Shown one piece after another: positions 2,924 through 12,263 of a stretch of DNA of 64,000 bases. Position 1 is the first letter of the stretch, and every line of letters starts with the position of its first letter. Location of the stretch: the NCBI RefSeq assembly GCF_054482525.1, contig NZ_CM137006.1, one strand, 5' to 3'. The notes beneath the pieces are model-generated. The model saw nothing but the letters and a program-made list of their open reading frames with translations, ran no database searches and was not told where the DNA came from. Both the position numbers and the translations under genes were made by a program.

Positions 2924-3319
2924 TTATCTTTTATTTACAGTTTCAATGCAATCAGCGACAAGTTGGTGTGGATTTAGATTCTTCAGATATGGTCTTATGA
3001 TCTTTCCCTTGCTTAATAAATAGCATGTATAGGATTCGGAAAGTCCAGCATCTATTTTGTACATCATTATTCTAGATAAGGATGTGAGAAATGCCTTGTT
3101 ATCATTAGCAGCCATATATGCCAGTCCGAGTTCAGCCTCTGCGGCTTTACATGAAAAATAGCTAAGTGAACACGCTTTTCGTCCCTCTTGGGTACTGGCT
3201 GATATTAGTGCCCATAATATTGCCTTGTCTGCCAAATCCAACTCTCTCTGAAATTGGTTTACAGTAACTGCATTCGCAGAAATAGAGAAAAAAAGCACAA
3301 TTGTTAATAACCTTGCCAT
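2924..3319 (-). CDS. Orphan immunity-like protein for the adjacent Rhs C-terminal tip; predicted signal peptide
   Basis: 131-aa ORF starting ATG 5 bp after the Rhs-fragment stop; N-terminus MARLLTIVLFFSISANA looks like a Sec signal peptide; AT-rich codon usage. Confidence 0.6.
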   Translation of the reverse strand: MARLLTIVLFFSISANAVTVNQFQRELDLADKAILWALISASTQEGRKACSLSYFSCKAAEAELGLAYMAANDNKAFLTSLSRIMMYKIDAGLSESYTCYLLSKGKIIRPYLKNLNPHQLVADCIETVNKR

Positions 3320-3323
3320 ATTT

Positions 3324-4133
3324 CTAGTCCGTCACTGTTAATGTGCTATCTGGCTCTGAAAATATTAGCTCATTTAATTTTTGCATGTCATTAGATGAAC
3401 CAGTTATACAACCCTCGGAACAGAATCGAGGTCCTAAAGATGGACCAAAAGCGTTTAAACAACTATGTGTTAAAAATCCATCACGATTATACGTTTCTGT
3501 ATTTGCTGACGGTACTAAACGTATACCATTAGGTTTTCTATTAGTTGCTCCAGGACCATTAACATTCCAGCTCCATACCCCTGGAGGTATTGGGCCTCTA
3601 TTTTGTAAGTGTGTACAACCAGGATTATTTTTACATTGCATATTATTACCATTATTACCAGAGGCGACTGAAATAGTAAGCACACCATAAGAATTATCAT
3701 CACTTGGCGTATCTGAAACGCATGAAAGCATACCTAAAGTTATGCTGTATAAACAGGTCGCTAATCCCAACGGGTCAATATCAGTTATCGGATTCAACGG
3801 ATACTGATAAAAATTCCATCCCCCCTTCAGTCCAATCGGATCCTGAGTGATATACCGCCCCTGCAGCTGGTGCGGGTTCTCTTCATTCAGCAGGTTGCCC
3901 CACTCATCGTATTCTGCGCACCATTCTGTTGCCCCTTCCGTGCTGATAAGCACCAGCGGCAGGCCGCGATGGTCGCAGTGGTACAGGTGGATTTTTCGCG
4001 CCGGCGTGTACACCGGGTCCATCTGGTTTTGCATCTGCGCCACCGTCAGGCCGCACGATGCCAGCCAGCGTCGGCTTTCCTCACTCACCCGGTCAGCCAG
4101 GATTTCACTTTCCAGCCGGTCGAGCATCTGCAC
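3324..4133 (-). CDS. Orphan Rhs C-terminal fragment (core end plus divergent toxin tip); no own ATG start
   Basis: Translation [29 protein letters not shown]...[18 protein letters not shown] is near-identical to the rhsA core end in this window, then diverges after the DPxGL motif into a unique Cys-rich tip; ORF-track start is a GTG that is an internal Val codon in rhsA. Confidence 0.7.
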
Positions 4134-4174: not shown

Positions 4175-5017
4175 CTATGAACGCTTCAGCTTATCAATAA
4201 CGGAAGTTATAATTTCATTGTCATCAAACTTGTACAACATAGTATCTAAAACAGGAAGTAGCGTTTTATCACCTAATTCACCCGCAGCTTCAATGATATC
4301 ATCATAAACAGTATTTTTTTTTAACTCATCGCATAAAACAGATAAAACCCTTTTATCTTTTCTGTAGGAAAGTCCGATTATTGCTTCAATACGGACTTCC
4401 TCATTTTTATCCTGAAGCATCTCCACAAAATAATCCCTAATATCACTATTATCATATTTATTGATATTTATTGCAAATGCGGCCCAGTTTCTGACATCTC
4501 CATTTGGATCTTTTAACAGATTAATCAATAGTGGAATTGTTTCTTTATCATTGATAACAGAAATAGCAAATGCCGTAGCACGTCTGACATTAGCCGATTT
4601 ATCAAAAGCAGTAATTTGAGATTGTTCTACTATTTTAGGTGAATAAATTGGGTTTTTCTTGCATCGCTGAGCAGTTGACTCGATTGCTGTAGCTCGAACG
4701 CAAGCACTTTTATCATTCAGTGCCATCTTTTTTAAAATATTAAAAACGCTATCTTCGCATTTTTTGCAAACTTTTATTTGCCCGAGTATAAATGCTCCTA
4801 TATCTCTACGGATATAATTTTTGTCAGCGCAGAATTCAATTGCCAATCTAACAGCGTCTTGCCCACCTCTTAGCTGCAATACTCTGGCAGATGAAATCCT
4901 TTTCAATGAATTGCGATTATCAAGTAAGCGAAATAATTCATCATCATTTAGTTTCTTACATTGATTGTATAAACCATACTCTTTACTTGCCTTTCTTTTC
5001 TGGTATGTATTCGACAT
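4175..5017 (-). CDS. yibA: HEAT-repeat protein
   Basis: Translation MSNTYQKRKASKEYGLYNQCKKLNDDELFRLLDN... matches recalled YibA (280 aa); GGAGG RBS 8 nt upstream of ATG at 5017. ORF-track start at 5032 is a 5-codon extension. Confidence 0.85.
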   Translation of the reverse strand: MSNTYQKRKASKEYGLYNQCKKLNDDELFRLLDNRNSLKRISSARVLQLRGGQDAVRLAIEFCADKNYIRRDIGAFILGQIKVCKKCEDSVFNILKKMALNDKSACVRATAIESTAQRCKKNPIYSPKIVEQSQITAFDKSANVRRATAFAISVINDKETIPLLINLLKDPNGDVRNWAAFAININKYDNSDIRDYFVEMLQDKNEEVRIEAIIGLSYRKDKRVLSVLCDELKKNTVYDDIIEAAGELGDKTLLPVLDTMLYKFDDNEIITSVIDKLKRS

Positions 5018-5121
5018 TGCAGGAACCTCCATAAAGACTATCTTTTTCTATCGTTTGACTGTCTGGAGTCCTCCACCTACTCTGCCATCAGCACACACGA
5101 TGTTTGTTTATCCTTACATAC

Positions 5122-5391
5122 TTATTTTCCGTGGCCAAAATTTAGAATTCTCCCGTCATTTTTGCCTATTTCTATAATAAAAACCCTACCAGCAATTTGG
5201 TCTGATTCAATGGTGCCTTCAACAATCCAACTTGTTGGTAATTCCATGATTTTGTATGGTTTTTCTTCTTCTTCTTCGGCATCATGTCCATAACGATTTT
5301 TAACATACATCTCAGCTAATTCCAATGCTATAGCTTTATTTTTGACCAAATTTCTAACGGTGTATTTCCCCTCACTTTCATACTTGCGCAT
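5122..5391 (-). CDS. Small NTF2-like (YbbC/YhhH-family-like) immunity-type protein
   Basis: 89-aa ORF, ATG start; shares KxxAxxLAExYxKxxYG...KPY...W.xEG...DG pattern with the 115-aa ORF at 6994..7341 and with Rhs-linked YbbC/YhhH proteins as recalled; no clear RBS. Confidence 0.5.
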   Translation of the reverse strand: MRKYESEGKYTVRNLVKNKAIALELAEMYVKNRYGHDAEEEEEKPYKIMELPTSWIVEGTIESDQIAGRVFIIEIGKNDGRILNFGHGK

Positions 5392-5472
5392 TATAATAAT
5401 ATTATTACACTGCGCCCATGTGTTGTATGTAAAAATAAAGATACAATCACATAGGTTCTGAATAATATTTTC

Positions 5473-5838
5473 TTATACGTTGTCATGTATTTTGCAAACA
5501 TTAGGCAATCCTTTTCCATTTATTATATCTTTCCCATGATTATCTATTGCTTTAAAATTTTCACCTATTGACCTTGAATTACTACAATCACTTCCAGTGA
5601 AATCTGAGTTATTCAGAATAGCATTCATCAGAGCCGCATTGCGAAAGACAGCATTTCTAGTTGATGTATGTTGAATCATTACATTTCTTAAATGAGTTTT
5701 TTCAAATTTCGCCCCATCAAGACAATAACCATTGAGGGTGGCACGATGTAGATTCATCCCGCTAAAATCATATCCAGCAAGAGTGGTACTATCTATCTCA
5801 AGAAATTTATTGGTTATTAAAAATGCGATTCTTATCAT
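5473..5838 (-). CDS. Pentapeptide-repeat protein (orphan immunity-like)
   Basis: Translation shows consecutive pentapeptide-like units (ATLNGYCLDGAKFEKTHLRNVMIQHTSTRNAVFRNAALMNAILNNSDFTGSD); first ATG at 5838 preceded by GGAGGA RBS; ORF-track TTG start at 5850 is probably an extension. Confidence 0.6.
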   Translation of the reverse strand: MIRIAFLITNKFLEIDSTTLAGYDFSGMNLHRATLNGYCLDGAKFEKTHLRNVMIQHTSTRNAVFRNAALMNAILNNSDFTGSDCSNSRSIGENFKAIDNHGKDIINGKGLPNVCKIHDNV

Positions 5839-5931
5839 CTGTTCCTCCAATCATCTAACTCCCGAAAAATTTGAAAACCAGAACCTCGCTTAGGCCTGTG
5901 TCCATACTACGTGGGTAGGATTATTCTACGT

Positions 5932-5974
5932 ACTACGCTGTTGTCCCTTACGTGCTGATAAGCGCCAGCGGCAG
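5932..5974 (-). repeat. Isolated ~43-bp scar homologous to the Rhs core-end coding sequence
   Basis: ...gctgttgtcccttacgtgctgataagcgccagcggcagg aligns to rhsA at about 8775..8817 and to the orphan fragment at about 3935..3966, with mismatches; flanks are unrelated. Confidence 0.5.
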
Positions 5975-6090
5975 GTTATTCGGTTTGCGTCGTTGAGTTC
6001 ACTACACTAAAACTCCGTGCCCATATAACCCAAGTCGGAGGCATGCCTTCCTCTGGTTCGTTCCATCTAAAATGTCTATACATAACATGG

Positions 6091-6333
6091 TTATTCAATT
6101 ATTTTTTCTTTGAGTTTATTCTCAATCCAGCTGTCTTTATACCTGATGAAAATTTGACATTCACCAATATTATCAATGTCACCAACATTTGTGTTTCGAA
6201 TTTGACCAACAGCAACTATAGTTGATTCAAAATATTCAACATTGACATTATCTGTAATTATTGAAATTATATAATCATCTGGAATAGAGCCATTAGGAGT
6301 TATATTGAAGAAACTAACATCTGAAAATACCAA
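6091..6333 (-). CDS. Hypothetical small protein (80 aa), possible orphan immunity gene
   Basis: Open frame with only a TTG start and no internal Met; AT-rich; lies downstream of a decayed coding remnant. Weak call. Confidence 0.3.
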   Translation of the reverse strand: MVFSDVSFFNITPNGSIPDDYIISIITDNVNVEYFESTIVAVGQIRNTNVGDIDNIGECQIFIRYKDSWIENKLKEKIIE

Positions 6334-6559
6334 ATAACCATCTTCTAAGTCTTCATTATCATAAAAATTCCATTCTGTTGTACCATAGGCTATCCTTGAG
6401 ATTAAATTAACCTGAATTCTAATTTGTTTACTCCATAAATCAAATTCAATTTTTTATTGCTCGATCACCAAGATATATTCTATCAAACATATTACCCCCC
6501 TATTCTAAAAATACTCAGGCATTCCGCACATTATATCAGCCTCATCTTGATTGCTTCCC

Positions 6560-6840
6560 GTTTCCCAATACGGCGGCGCGGGGAGTCATAAAGGTAAGAA
6601 ATTTCCAGCAGTACGGCGTCCTATTGTTCACGGCGGTAATGCACCAGCCAGTATTGGCTATCGTAGTGATAACCGTGTAACCTGCCGCCGCATCGCGTAT
6701 CTAATGTTCATTCTTTTCCATAAACCGTCCGTACACATTGTGATAGTAAAAATACAATACATCTTCGCTGATGCGGTTATTCTGCTGCATGTGGGAAGCG
6801 CCGAATACTGCTCCCGGTATGGCCAGTAATTACTATTTAG
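6560..6840 (-). pseudogene. Decayed coding remnant (possible orphan toxin-tip fragment)
   Basis: GC-richer patch in AT-rich DNA; minus-strand frames give protein-like stretches (LAIPGAVFGASHMQQNNRISEDVLYFYYHNVYGRFMEKNEH*, AGYTVITTIANTGWCITAVNNRTPYCWKF...) broken by stops; ORF-track 67-aa and 92-aa ORFs overlap here. Confidence 0.3.
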
Positions 6841-6993
6841 TACGACGTTAGGGGGAGTCACTTAATCTCACAGATACTTCAAGTAACAGATGAAAATCGC
6901 TCCTGAAATGAAAAAGAAATTTTTTTGAATGTGTTCCTGTCAAATCAAGTGGTTTTTTCGTCGATATGTAGAGTCATATTGTACACAAAATAG

Positions 6994-7341
6994 TTACGAA
7001 ACACACCTTGGTAAAATATTTGAATCGTCTGAACAGTGGATTATTTTGTGTATTACATCCAACGCTTGCCCATCTTTTTTCGCTATTAGTATTGTAAAAT
7101 TTCCTCCTAACGTCTTCGGTTGTTTTCCCTCGATTTTCCAACAATTATTGTCATCTGTAATACTATATGGTTTCTGAAATTCTGCTTTTTCTTTCCCGTA
7201 TATATATTTAATATAAACATATGATAATTCCAAAGCCATTTCACGACTATTTACTAAAATTTCCGCTGAATTTTCTTTTCCAAATACTGAGTGTGATATT
7301 GTAAACAATATCATAATAAGTAATATTAGTGAGTTTCTCAT
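6994..7341 (-). CDS. Secreted NTF2-like (YbbC/YhhH-family-like) immunity-type protein
   Basis: 115-aa ORF, ATG with AGGTG RBS; N-terminal signal peptide MRNSLILLIMILFTISHSVFG; shares motif pattern with 5122..5391. Confidence 0.6.
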   Translation of the reverse strand: MRNSLILLIMILFTISHSVFGKENSAEILVNSREMALELSYVYIKYIYGKEKAEFQKPYSITDDNNCWKIEGKQPKTLGGNFTILIAKKDGQALDVIHKIIHCSDDSNILPRCVS

Positions 7342-7509
7342 GCTCTACACCTATCGAATCTCAAAAGTTGTGGGTAAAACATTACATTCAGAATATATGA
7401 TATTCTTACCATCGGAATCCATTTTTCCAAATCGACCTTCTGGTGTTCCTGGATACCCATTAAGAACATATTTTTTCGAATAGTTAATTTATTTTCTCAG
7501 GAAGAGATT

Positions 7510-8079
7510 TTATTTTTCTTCACTACGAAGTAGTTCATGCTGTACTTTTGTTAAACATTCGTAAGACTCATCTTTGTTCGGGAGATGTGCTGTCATTCGA
7601 GCATAAGTTGGCTTCTCATCTTTAAAATATTTAACCATGATTGAATTATCAAGGACTGCCAACAACTGAGCTGGATCACTGCTCTTTTTTTGATAGATAC
7701 CCGCTCTTATATAACTTCTAAACCGATCGCCGAGAAACGCCGTTTTTTCTGCTGTATTTAGCAACTCCTGCAACGTTCCTTTGGTTGCATGATTTTCATT
7801 AAGGCGTAGTGATCCGACGCGAATTAAGAGTCTCGCCCCGCTTGGTGTGAATTTGTTATTTTTACATATACCAAGCTCTGTTTGCCAATAATACTCACCT
7901 ATGTCCTCATTCTGATACCATCTCCACATGGTTTTATTATTTAAGACAGGAAACGCGGAAAAAATAGTACCCTTAGTGAAAATGGTAAAGCAATCTTGAT
8001 CTTTAGCTTGTGTTTCGCAATTAGCTATAACACCAAAACTAACGAATATCATCAGCAAAAAGAACAAAGCTCTTTTCAT
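7510..8079 (-). CDS. Putative cognate immunity protein of RhsA (secreted)
   Basis: 189-aa ORF whose ATG overlaps the rhsA stop by 4 bp (8076..8079); N-terminal signal peptide [19 protein letters not shown]; AT-rich relative to the rhsA core. Confidence 0.65.
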
Positions 8080-11000
8080 TTTCTTATTCCTCTCGATGTT
8101 CTCTGTTTCATTTTAGCTAAAATTTCACCCAAATCATCTATCCCTGCTGTTGCTGGCCCATCGGGTTTATTAATGTCTGGGAATAAATAGGGTTCTGCAC
8201 AAGTATATCCTGGTGGTAATTGAGTTGTTGGCCAAGTTGTCTGTGGCAGGTAATCACTTGCTGTCTTTGTCTCCATCCCTGGATACTGGGGATCATCCTG
8301 CGGCGTACAAGTCAGATTGGGTTTTACCCACTTCCTGCAATACAGTGTGTAATCGTAAGGACTTAATGCTCTGAAGAATGTTTTGAAAACATTAGGCGCA
8401 CTACTGGCCTGGTCAATAGGATATGGCAGTCTTAATTGTTTCGCTATGTCTGGCAACTTACTTGGATCGGGCGTAGGCGGTTTGTTGGGTCTCGCTCCAT
8501 ATCCGCCATTATTTAAGTGTCCATATTTAGATGCCAGTCCCATTGAATCTATATACTGAACCGGATTTAACGGATACTGATAAAAATTCCATCCCCCCTT
8601 CAGTCCAATCGGATCCTGAGTGATATACCGCCCCTGCAGCGGGTCATAATAGCGGTGGCGGTTGTAATACAGGCCTGACTCCTCATCATACTGCTGACCC
8701 GGCAGGCGGATGAGCTGCTGCAGCTGGTGCGGGTTATCCTCACTCAGCTGGTTACCCCATTCATCGTATTCTGCGTACCATTCTGTTGCCCCTTCCGTGC
8801 TGACAAGCGCCAGCGGCAGGCCGCGATGGTCGCAGTGGTACAGGTGGATTTTTCGCGCCGGCGTGTACACCGGGTCCATCTGGTTTTGCATCTGCTCCAC
8901 CGTCAGGCCGCACGATGCCAGCCAGCGGCGGCTTTCCTCACTCACCCGGTCAGTAAGGATTTCACTTTCCAGCCGGTCGAGCATCTGCACCAGCACCGGC
9001 GGGAACACCACATCACCACCGTCTTCACCGCCGGACTGCTGAAGCGCATCCGCCAGGCTGCGGCGCTGCGTTTTCGCCAGCTCACCGGTGGCAGTTTCAA
9101 CTCTGATGAGTGGCGTGAAGCTCCCCGGCTGATAAACCGTCTGGATGCGGGTTCTGTCGTTCTGTATCGTGGTCAGCCGGTCGCCGTCCCAGCCGTACCA
9201 GGTCACTTCCGGTTTCCGTGACAGCGACATCCAGCCCGTCAGGTCCCGTTCACGCCGCCACACCCGTTTTGCCACCCTGCGGCCCAGCGGGTCGTAAAGA
9301 TAGCGACTTTCGACCAGCGGCTCTGCATATTGTGTCCGCGTGTAGTGCACCAGCCGGTGCTGACTGTCGTAATGGTACTGGTGAGTCCGCTCATCATCCG
9401 TGCGGATAACCCCTTCCGGGATGAGGTCGGTTTTCTCTGTCAGCCTGCCGTGACGGTCATACCGGTAAAGATAGTGCGCGTCACGGGCGATACGGTTATC
9501 CGGCCACATGCTGAGGGTGCTGTCCGGGTGCAGCTCCGGGTCGGGCAGGCGGTTACCTGCCGGGTCTGTGGCATACGGGATGCGGATATCAAGGTTCGCT
9601 GCCGTGGTGTGAACGCCGGTCAGCCTGCCGGAGTCGCTGTAGCTGTAACTCCGGGTCTGGCGCGGGCTGCTGATGCGGATGAGTTCGCCGTTGTCGTTCC
9701 AGGTGTAATCGCGGTCATACTGCAGGCTGTTCAGATGCTGGCTCTGTAACTGCCCGGCAGGGGTGTAAGCGGTGGTGAGTTCATAACGGCCGAAGCTGCG
9801 CAGCGTTTCCCGGTGCAGGCGGTCGCGGGTGAAATCCACCAGCGGTGTGTCGCCGAGTTTCATGCCTGACAGCCAGCCGCTGCCGTAGGTCAGCCATTCC
9901 ACGGCGGGCAGGCTGTCCGGTATACAGCGGTTCGCCAGTCCCTGCGCGTTGTAAGCGTGTCTGGTTTCATGCTGCCAGAGCAGTGCTTCCGTCTGCGGGT
10001 GATGCACCGTCTGGCGCTCACCGGTCAGGCGGCCTTTCTCATCATACCCGTAATGCACCGTCACCCGGTGGCCTTCGCTGAGATGGCTGATTTGTGTCAG
10101 CCAGCCGCGTTCGTCATACTGCCACTGCTCTGCCGGTTCACCCTTCACGGTGCGGTGAGTGAGGCGGTCTGCTTCGTCATAGTGCCAGTGGGTGACCAGC
10201 CCCTCATCCTCGCTGCGGATAAGTTTGCCGGTCAGGTCGTGGTGATAACGCTGTGTGCGGCCGTCAAAGCCGGTTTCCTGTATCAGCCGGTCAAGTACAT
10301 CGTAACGGAAGGTGGTGTGGCTGCCGTTTTCACTGGTCAGGCGGATGACCCGTCCGGCAGCATCGTATTCCATACTGCGCGTCAGACCGCCCTGCGTGGT
10401 ACGGATGGCCTTTCCCCACGCATCGTACTGTGTCCCGTTTCTGCTGCCGTCCGGGGCAATGACGGCGGTCAGGTCACCGGCGGCGTTGTATTCATACCGC
10501 GTTTCATGGCCCTGCATGTCTTTCACCGCAATTAACTGTCCACGGCTGTCGTATGCGCGGTACTGGCTCAGGCCTTCCTCGCGGTGCACCGCCGTCACCT
10601 GACCAAAACGGTCATGGTCATAACGGGTTACATAACCGGAACAGTCAGTGACGGTCAGCAACTGACCGTAACGGCTCCATGTCATGGTTTTCCGGCTGCC
10701 GGTGGCATCCTCCGTTGCGCAGGGTAAGTCACTGTGTGGATTATCATAACGGTAGCGGGTGATATCGCCGTCAGGGGCAGTTTCCTGAATCAGACGGCCG
10801 GATTCATCATATTCCCGGCGTATTTCCAGCCCGTCAGTCCCGGTGGCTGACGTTAACTGGCTGTGGTGGTTATAGTAAAACGCCGATGCCCTGCCATCCG
10901 GCGTGGTGATGCGCGTGATGAGGCCCGTCACCACATCCGGGCTGTATTCTGTTGTCCGGCCTGCGGCATCCGTCTGTGCCTTAAGCCTGCCCACCGCATC

Positions 11001-12263
11001 AAACTGACTCTGCGTGACGCTGCCGTCCGCGTGTTCCTTTTTCACCACCCGCTTCAGCCCGCCTTCGCCCTGCGTGTGCAGCACTTCACGGCGGTCCAGA
11101 CTGTCGGTGATGGTGATGCGGTCTTTCTCATACTGATACGTGTAGCTTAAGCCTGCCGGGTTTAGCTGCTCTGTCACCCGCCCGTCGCTGTCGTAACGGT
11201 AACGGATTTCCGGCCGGCCCGTGTGACGGTGCGCCACCATCCGGCCCCGGTATTTATCATCGTAAGTAAAGCTGCGCACCTGTGTATTGCTGCGGTCATA
11301 CACCGCCGCCAGTTCGCCGCGCGGCGTCCAGCCATAGCGTACCAGCGGCGCGGCTGGCAGGTTATCCGGATATTCCGGGTCGTGCGTCAGCCACACGGCA
11401 GACAGACGGATGCCGTTGTCCCGGCCATATTCGGTGTAACCCGGCAGGGTATCAGGAAAAGCGGACGGTTCCGTCCCGCCGGAAATGGCCTGCTGCCGGG
11501 CTTCTTCTGCCCGCTGCGCCTGCGTGGTCAGTACCAGCCGGAAGTGACGCCCGGCACCATCCGTCACGCCGCTGAATTCGCCGCCAGCCTCACGGTGGAA
11601 CGTCTGTGTGCGCCCGAAGCGGTCCACCAGCCCGGTCAGTACCCGGTACGGCGGCAGCGGCGCAGGCAGCACCTCATCCGCCTCCGGCACCCGCTCACAC
11701 CAGCCGAGTACCCACCACGGCCCCTGCGGACTGTTCGTCGCCAGATAACGATGCGGACTCAGGCGAAGCTCTTCCGGCAGCGCCTGCCAGAGTGCGGCCA
11801 GCCGGTGACCTTCATCCAGTTTCGCCACGCCGCCACGCACCAGCCAGAGTGACTCGCTGCGGCTGTAACCGTCCTCACCGGGAAACAGGTGCTCAAAATA
11901 CAGGCTCCTGCCGCCGTTATCACTGAGTATCAGTGTGTTATCGCGCAGCTGTAAGCGGATATCCGCGGGCATTTTCCAGCCGGGGCCGAGGCTCCCCACC
12001 GGCGCGGGCGTTTTTGTCCGGTAACTGCTGTAGGTGCGGGAGAGGATGAACGGCAGCGGGCCGGGCAGGGCAAGGTCGGTTTCGCCGGGAAGGACCTTCG
12101 CGCCGAGCAGCGGATTGACCGGATGGCCGGACGTCACCCCGCCGGGGCACACCGAACAGGCCACGCCGGTGGGGGCACCGATGCGCACCCCGGCTGAACC
12201 CTGAACAATGCTACCGCCATACTGCGTCATGTCGCCCTGACGCGCCGCCGGTTTTCCGCTCAT
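8076..12263 (-). CDS. rhsA: Rhs-family polymorphic toxin: PAAR-like N-terminus, YD-repeat core, variant C-terminal tip
   Basis: 1395-aa ORF beginning [29 protein letters not shown], repeated YD/RY motifs, conserved [15 protein letters not shown] near the end followed by a ~170-aa proline-rich tip; sits beside yibF as rhsA does in K-12; GC-rich core. Confidence 0.95.

Follow-up and report, generated by a model that had tools for sequence, protein, structure and literature searches.

An Rhs tip of an undescribed family, common in Escherichia coli, is paired with a putative periplasmic immunity protein of the YbfC type and probably acts in the cell envelope

The module examined here, an Rhs C-terminal tip followed by a small partner gene, lies on the minus strand of a 64,000-nucleotide stretch of Escherichia coli DNA that we call the window (NCBI RefSeq assembly GCF_054482525.1, contig NZ_CM137006.1). 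Its closest described relatives are the ybfO/ybfC pair of E. coli K-12 and the RhsC/YbfC pair of O157:H7 (z0847-z0853), which share with it a tip of 98-99% identity, a 189-aa partner protein of 93% identity and the same 4-bp gene overlap. Those two pairs are found at the rhsC locus, whereas the window module is carried on a full-length Rhs protein at the rhsA locus, on the yibF side. An in silico study of enterohaemorrhagic E. coli listed the pair as RhsC/RhsCI, with no function (PMC7216683), in a transcriptome study ybfC appears as a 'putative secreted protein' (PMC6033998), and the partner bears the label 'protein YbfC' from the Prokaryotic Genome Annotation Pipeline in thousands of genomes. 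In one survey, 18 of 24 E. coli Rhs toxins were without known activity (PMC10761095). We propose that the tip is a toxin of the T6SS kind (T6SS, type VI secretion system), belonging to an undescribed family, and that it probably acts in the periplasm or envelope, where a periplasmic immunity protein would neutralize it.

Periplasm-directed Rhs tips are a minority case, with precedents in the Tlde1 tips, MPTase4 and Tse5. The Tlde1 tips likewise combine an Rhs-borne toxin with a partner that has a signal peptide, and the window itself holds an example at 3324..4133; Tlde1 was reportedly described by Sibinelli-Sousa et al. in 2020 as an L,D-transpeptidase-like protein that acts in the periplasm. 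Two further Rhs scaffolds likewise carry toxins directed at the envelope and not at nucleic acids: Pseudomonas aeruginosa Tse5, an Rhs-type pore-forming toxin (PMC9637101), and E. coli Rhs-CT1, an MPTase4 metallopeptidase according to a passage of a review (PMC6730261) that cites Ma et al. 2017b. A different parallel comes from Serratia marcescens Ssp2 and Ssp4, periplasm-acting T6SS effectors that are activated by DsbA of the target cell (PMC5792426). These two are likewise small, with conserved cysteines and periplasmic immunity proteins, and offer a model for activation after the reducing cytoplasm has been left behind, whereas they are cargo effectors rather than Rhs tips and have no homology to the window domain.

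The intact Rhs gene (8076..12263, minus strand) encodes 1395 aa in the list of open reading frames (ORFs) and lies downstream of yibF, its assignment to the rhsA locus being taken from the annotation of strain PCN033. Residues 1-1243 match the RHS core model NF041261 (RHS_core) of NCBIfam at 2622.5 bits against a cut-off of 2000, and a match to Rhs_assc_core (TIGR03696; 79.8 bits, cut-off 32.5) also ends at residue 1243. YD repeats (E 6e-42) and a clear DUF6531 match at the N terminus (E 3.7e-18) were also found. Rhs and Tc-type toxins cleave themselves at a DPxGL-type motif, which releases the tip. The predicted self-cleavage motif at the end of the window core reads DPIGL, 18 residues, DSMGL (8535..8615, minus strand), and its DPIGL-containing part starts at residue 1217 (codon 8615-8613). 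The second aspartyl-protease motif (8535..8552) is IDSMGL instead of the usual DPxGL, and the corresponding sequence is DPLGL in both K-12 RhsA and the orphan rhs fragment of the window. Because the point at which the sequences diverge lies 10 residues upstream of IDSMGL, this variant travels with the tip. The G+C content is 62.1% in the core and 43.7% in the tip, and the downstream gene is lower still (37.5%); the drop at the tip is the classic composition break between Rhs core and tip. A variable tip of different composition, followed by a small cognate gene, is the mark of an Rhs polymorphic toxin. Both are present here, the partner gene being kept across genera, and the architecture as a whole is that of a textbook Rhs toxin–immunity module, the sequence of which entered the databases with the K-12 genome. 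Over 7450-8640, the window is 100% identical to strain SCU-102. In PCN033, the copy of the rhs gene (L002, 5378..9565) has 6 nucleotide differences, and its frame is cut short by a stop at codon 1172, whereas the window copy is intact; the window DNA therefore belongs to a near relative of PCN033 and not to that strain.

The tip consists of the 151 residues that follow MGLA (8079-8531, minus strand). It parts from K-12 RhsA directly after YPLNPV and also differs from the orphan fragment at 3324..4133, as the first-pass annotation, which was made from the letters of the window and had placed both the tip and the downstream gene correctly, had supposed. The same annotation had described the tip as proline-rich. 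By composition this is so, with 14.6% proline against 5.4% in the core, but the prolines belong to a linker that is not conserved (residues 1245-1276; 8436..8531, minus strand). This linker is kept only among close enterobacterial relatives and is replaced by unrelated sequence in distant members; the unrelated tip of K-12 RhsA likewise opens with a proline-rich run, VFPRPFPLPIPWPKSP. Family alignments show a variable linker followed by a conserved unit of about 115 aa at the end of the protein, from about YPID to the C-terminal RK. We refer to this unit as the toxin domain; as delimited from the alignments it spans 119 aa (LRLPYPID...RGIRK; 8079..8435, minus strand) and belongs to an unnamed family. 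Eight of its positions are invariant (P26, Y29, W36, D61, P74, C79, A97 and D101) and another eleven nearly so (S25, Y27, D28, C33, C43, P64, G76, P82, F85, R118 and K119). The domain is rich in conserved Tyr, Trp and Asp and is basic, with a pI of 8.5, or 9.1 when the linker is included.

The partner gene (7510..8079, minus strand) encodes a 189-aa protein of the YbfC family, 93% identical to K-12 YbfC, which we regard as the putative immunity protein. Its start codon and the rhs stop codon share the sequence ATGA (8076..8079), the overlap that had been reported in the first-pass annotation and that we read as a sign of translational coupling. A Shine-Dalgarno-like GAGAGGA (8088-8094) lies 8 nt upstream of the ATG, and scans of the rhs–immunity junction for promoters and terminators gave counts no higher than in shuffled sequence. 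The same 4-bp overlap is found in K-12, O157:H7, Phytobacter, Acidovorax and a metagenome locus (L004). The N terminus of the protein has the n/h/c layout of a Sec signal peptide, predicted here for residues 1-19 (8023-8079): MKR, a 15-residue hydrophobic stretch with a best 10-mer Kyte–Doolittle value of 3.2, and V-I-A before residue 20. All 23 homologues examined share this layout: each has one or two basic residues at positions 2-5, a strongly hydrophobic 10-mer (Kyte–Doolittle 2.35-3.49) and, ahead of position 20, small residues at -3 and -1. The signal peptide is therefore not a chance feature, and its sequence is more variable among the homologues than the mature part. The signal peptide read from the letters in the first pass thus holds up as a prediction; the description of the protein as 'secreted' is better worded as exported to the periplasm. 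Homologues of 58-99% identity were found in Escherichia, Salmonella, Citrobacter, Kluyvera and Pseudocitrobacter. Searches of the YbfC family against Pfam (seven members) and against the PDB gave no match.

The mature protein would comprise 170 aa with four cysteines (7513-8022). Cysteines downstream of the predicted signal peptide number four or two in each of the 23 homologues; none lacks C30 or C175, and C21 and C72 are either both present or both absent. This pattern is as expected for two disulfides in an exported protein. The position of Cys21 raises the alternative that the immunity protein is a lipoprotein, acylated on this residue, anchored in the membrane and guarding a target located there. 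In most homologues Cys21 comes right after the signal sequence, and a strict lipobox ([LVI][ASTVI][GAS]C) is present in 4 of the 23, with a loose one at Cys21 in five more. However, the E. coli alleles have no lipobox: the window reads VIANC and K-12 reads VIADC. Because these alleles have N or D at -1, cleavage by signal peptidase I after Ala19 is the better reading, and most of the other homologues also have N, D, T or Y at this position. The joint presence or absence of Cys21 and Cys72 fits a disulfide pair, and the homologues from Delftia and a metagenome locus (L007) do without Cys21. We therefore think a lipoprotein unlikely and favour a soluble protein in the periplasm.

Bioinformatic analyses of more distant genomes showed that the two proteins stay together. 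In word-indexed searches, close relatives of the toxin domain (68-76% identity) were found in Salmonella enterica, including subsp. salamae, in Phytobacter ursingii and in unlabelled metagenome sequences. A profile search of 1.84 billion representative proteins returned only 27 matches at E<=0.001, and the family is thus small. Its distant members (34-46% identity) come from Delftia, Acidovorax/Paracidovorax and metagenomes, where they form the tips of Rhs proteins or stand as orphan tips. The gene directly after each distant toxin homologue encodes a YbfC relative, in Delftia, in the metagenome loci L004 and L007 and in Acidovorax. The Delftia relative is 28% identical to the window protein (E 4e-23), and in Acidovorax and Phytobacter the toxin gene and the gene for the YbfC relative overlap by 4 bp. 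The toxin–immunity pairing is thus conserved across two families, from Enterobacteriaceae to Comamonadaceae. Some of these loci also adjoin T6SS-associated genes: in Delftia (L003) the Rhs gene has vgrG directly upstream, and L004 has vgrG, DUF2169 and PAAR genes beside it. In Delftia tsuruhatensis (L003, 5630..6348), the toxin domain itself is orphaned, and what is left of a degraded rhs core (5630..6004) runs into a separate tip ORF of 115 aa; this layout, with an orphan behind the main gene, is the same as in K-12. Three short contigs (L010, L011 and L013) that carry an E. coli-type tip of 70-97% identity belong to metagenome-assembled genomes binned as Flavobacterium psychrophilum, Candidatus Nanosynbacter and Erysipelotrichia, and the tip in these bins is almost certainly enterobacterial contamination.

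Within E. coli, the module is the K-12 ybfO/ybfC and O157:H7 RhsC/YbfC pair and not new sequence, as judged from the high full-length identity of both proteins and the same gene order, which place it in the YbfO-CT/YbfC orthologous group. The tip is 99% identical to the C terminus of K-12 YbfO, whose gene is an rhs fragment in the rhsC locus that carries a pseudogene annotation. Full-length RhsC bears this tip in O157:H7, where the tip is followed by ybfC and by genes for an NTF2-fold immunity protein and a DUF6258 protein, which is also the order downstream of the tip in the window. The first-pass annotation had set the tip apart from that of K-12 RhsA; this is correct, but the tip is present in K-12 under another name, as ybfO/ybfC, and in O157:H7 RhsC. 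Window positions 7510-8500, used as a query against 5426 complete E. coli genomes, identified tip and immunity DNA in 3613, nearly always as a single copy (median one place, maximum two). The window allele, at >=99% identity, was found in 283 of the 5426 genomes, and the K-12/O157 type (95-99%) in 3326. The toxin is thus among the commonest Rhs toxins of E. coli, occurring in about two of every three complete genomes, among them those of K-12, O157:H7 and extraintestinal pathogenic E. coli. In a sample of 39 copies, evenly spaced along the ranking, about 10 lay under a full-length 'RHS element core protein' and the remainder under rhs fragments. Recombination through the conserved core has evidently carried the whole block of tip and immunity gene from one rhs locus to another. 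The ratio of nonsynonymous to synonymous substitution (dN/dS), taken between the window allele and K-12, was 0.10 in the tip and 0.26 in the immunity gene, with similar values against O157:H7. Both genes are therefore under purifying selection, though K-12 has only an orphan copy.

We searched for the identity of the toxin with sequence, profile and structure comparisons. The tip gave no match in Pfam even at E<=10, and none in NCBIfam, PHROGs or PADLOC; 13 members of the toxin family had no Pfam match at E<=0.001 (best 0.043), and sequence and profile searches of the PDB with the toxin also found nothing. No described toxin family (the Pfam Tox- and Ntox- families, Tae, Tge, Tle, Tlde1, colicin M and others) had a significant profile or structure match to the domain. 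A first AlphaFold (AF2) run on eight close sequences was uninformative, with a predicted local distance difference test (pLDDT) of 43. With 23 diverse sequences, the mean pLDDT rose to 68.8, with residues 30-90 at 82-89, and the model showed a small arrangement of a helix, a three-stranded sheet and a helix, together with a long C-terminal helix. This model matched no known fold. Because it is of medium confidence, a new fold is possible and not established. That the tip fits no known toxin family, as suspected when it was first annotated, is borne out by these Pfam, NCBIfam, PDB and fold comparisons. A VipE-like similarity, itself an in silico guess (PMC7216683), gave a TM-score of 0.57 and was uninformative.

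The conserved residues narrow the range of possible activities. Neither a conserved His nor a conserved Glu is present in the family alignment, and the tip contains no membrane-spanning segment or hydrophobic helix, its top 19-residue hydropathy window reaching only 0.14. With conserved His and Glu and hydrophobic helices all lacking, the evidence speaks against a mechanism of the amidase, NlpC/P60, Tlde1, metallopeptidase, lysozyme-like or pore-forming type. Hydrolases with a Cys-His active site (amidase, NlpC/P60 and Tlde1) were ruled out for want of a conserved His, which also separates the domain from Tlde1, to which it has no sequence or profile similarity. A pore-former is unlikely without a hydrophobic segment: Tse5-CT has hydrophobic helices, whereas the window domain has none. 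MPTase4 differs in having an HExxH-type site and a Pfam model, and the window domain has neither. A Y-D-[YF] motif suggested a colicin M-like lipid II phosphatase. The colicin M motif includes a flanking D and H-R; these are missing here, there was no fold match, and this candidate was rejected. As a tentative guess that we hold with little conviction, the toxin may bind or cleave a component of the cell wall or a lipid-linked component of the envelope, and would not be a classical amidase, lipase, nuclease or pore-former.

Taken with the mechanisms established for other Rhs and T6SS proteins, from which we infer release, carriage on the spike and neutralization in the periplasm, these features suggest how the module could work. 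The tip, enclosed in the Rhs shell, would be cut off by autoproteolysis at the aspartyl-protease motif of the DPxGL type, and would reach the periplasm of Gram-negative neighbours on the T6SS spike. In that compartment the toxin would fold, possibly with its cysteines oxidized by the DsbA of the victim, and would damage a target in the envelope. In sibling cells, the exported YbfC-type protein would bind the toxin in the periplasm, and the siblings would survive. The part played by DsbA is a hypothesis suggested by the conserved cysteines, in analogy with Ssp2 and Ssp4. The envelope as the probable site of action, proposed in the first pass from the signal peptide of the partner, gains support from three features that are all conserved from Enterobacteriaceae to Comamonadaceae: the toxin–immunity pairing, the signal peptide and the cysteine pairs. 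It is also conceivable, though we would not count on it, that the domain of about 115 aa represents a new structural and mechanistic class: a periplasm-acting toxin with no His/Glu catalytic set, activated by oxidation and directed at an envelope target that known T6SS effectors do not use. If so, it would be easy to study, as K-12 has a silent copy together with its immunity gene (ybfO/ybfC). Solving the activity of the toxin would assign a function to the K-12 y-genes ybfO and ybfC and might reveal a new vulnerability of the envelope.

Several observations weigh against the proposal of a T6SS-delivered, envelope-acting toxin. The genes beside the window rhs are yibF/selAB and an array of immunity-type genes, with no vgrG, eagR or T6SS gene among them, and the Pfam PAAR_motif matches the Rhs N terminus weakly, over residues 2-20 only (E 0.21); because of these two points, T6SS delivery is proposed by analogy only. 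Rhs genes without adjoining T6SS genes have been called 'neighbourless' Rhs (review PMC6730261), and a functional T6SS is encoded at another place in the genome of the close relative PCN033 (PMC6363058). The conserved cysteines of the toxin domain number three, an odd count, and no catalytic residues can be named in the domain. A literature search on ybfC, ybfO, their locus tags and accessions found no functional study of the toxin or of YbfC. Finally, a survey across Salmonella reports that the toxins on Rhs scaffolds usually act in the cytoplasm (PMC12994826).

This last point, together with the basic character of the toxin (pI 9.1), leads to the alternative that it attacks something in the cytoplasm, such as nucleic acid. 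In that case, either the exported 189-aa protein would intercept the toxin in the periplasm on its way in, or the real immunity protein would be the 115-aa NTF2-fold protein encoded at 6994..7341, the gene for which follows ybfC in both the window and O157:H7. Two arguments make a cytoplasmic target quite unlikely: no nuclease, deaminase or ADP-ribosyltransferase (ART) motif and no Pfam family was found in the toxin, and the cytoplasm of the producer would be unprotected if the toxin escaped from its shell. Nor does the NTF2-fold gene keep company with the toxin. A YbfC homologue stays beside it in Delftia, Acidovorax, Phytobacter and metagenomes, whereas the NTF2-fold gene is not conserved there; what lies downstream of the YbfC homologue changes from locus to locus, which leaves the YbfC-type protein as the conserved partner. 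That the module is a relic of evolution and now inactive, as the pseudogene annotation of K-12 ybfO, the stop at codon 1172 in PCN033 and the location of about three-quarters of the sampled E. coli copies on rhs fragments might suggest, is very unlikely given the intact 1395-aa frame in the window, the full-length RhsC that bears the tip in O157:H7, the purifying selection on both genes and the conservation of the family, with its invariant residues, down to 34% identity.

In PCN033, a near-identical strain, this locus has yibF/selAB on its upstream side, and downstream come yibA, an rhs fragment, yibH, yibI and mtlA. In the window, the space from the YbfC-type gene to the following rhs fragment is taken up by an array of orphan immunity-type genes without toxins (4175..7341, minus strand). 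All on the minus strand, these encode the 115-aa NTF2-fold immunity protein, which has a signal-like N terminus, a DUF6258 protein (about 6091..6393), a pentapeptide-repeat protein (5473..5850), a second NTF2-fold protein (5122..5391) and YibA (4175..5032). In K-12, yibA directly follows the RhsA tip, a tip that is absent from the window. The array looks like the debris of successive tip displacements. Beyond it, the orphan rhs fragment (3324..4133, minus strand) encodes 269 aa from a GTG start and contains the Tlde1 domain (Pfam E 5e-7). The fragment is followed by an ORF of 131 aa (within 2924..4133, minus strand) with a signal-like N terminus, MARLLTIVLFFSISANA, which the PCN033 annotation gives as a frameshifted member of the Imm57 family. 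Together, the Tlde1 orphan and this ORF would be a second periplasm-directed toxin module at the locus.

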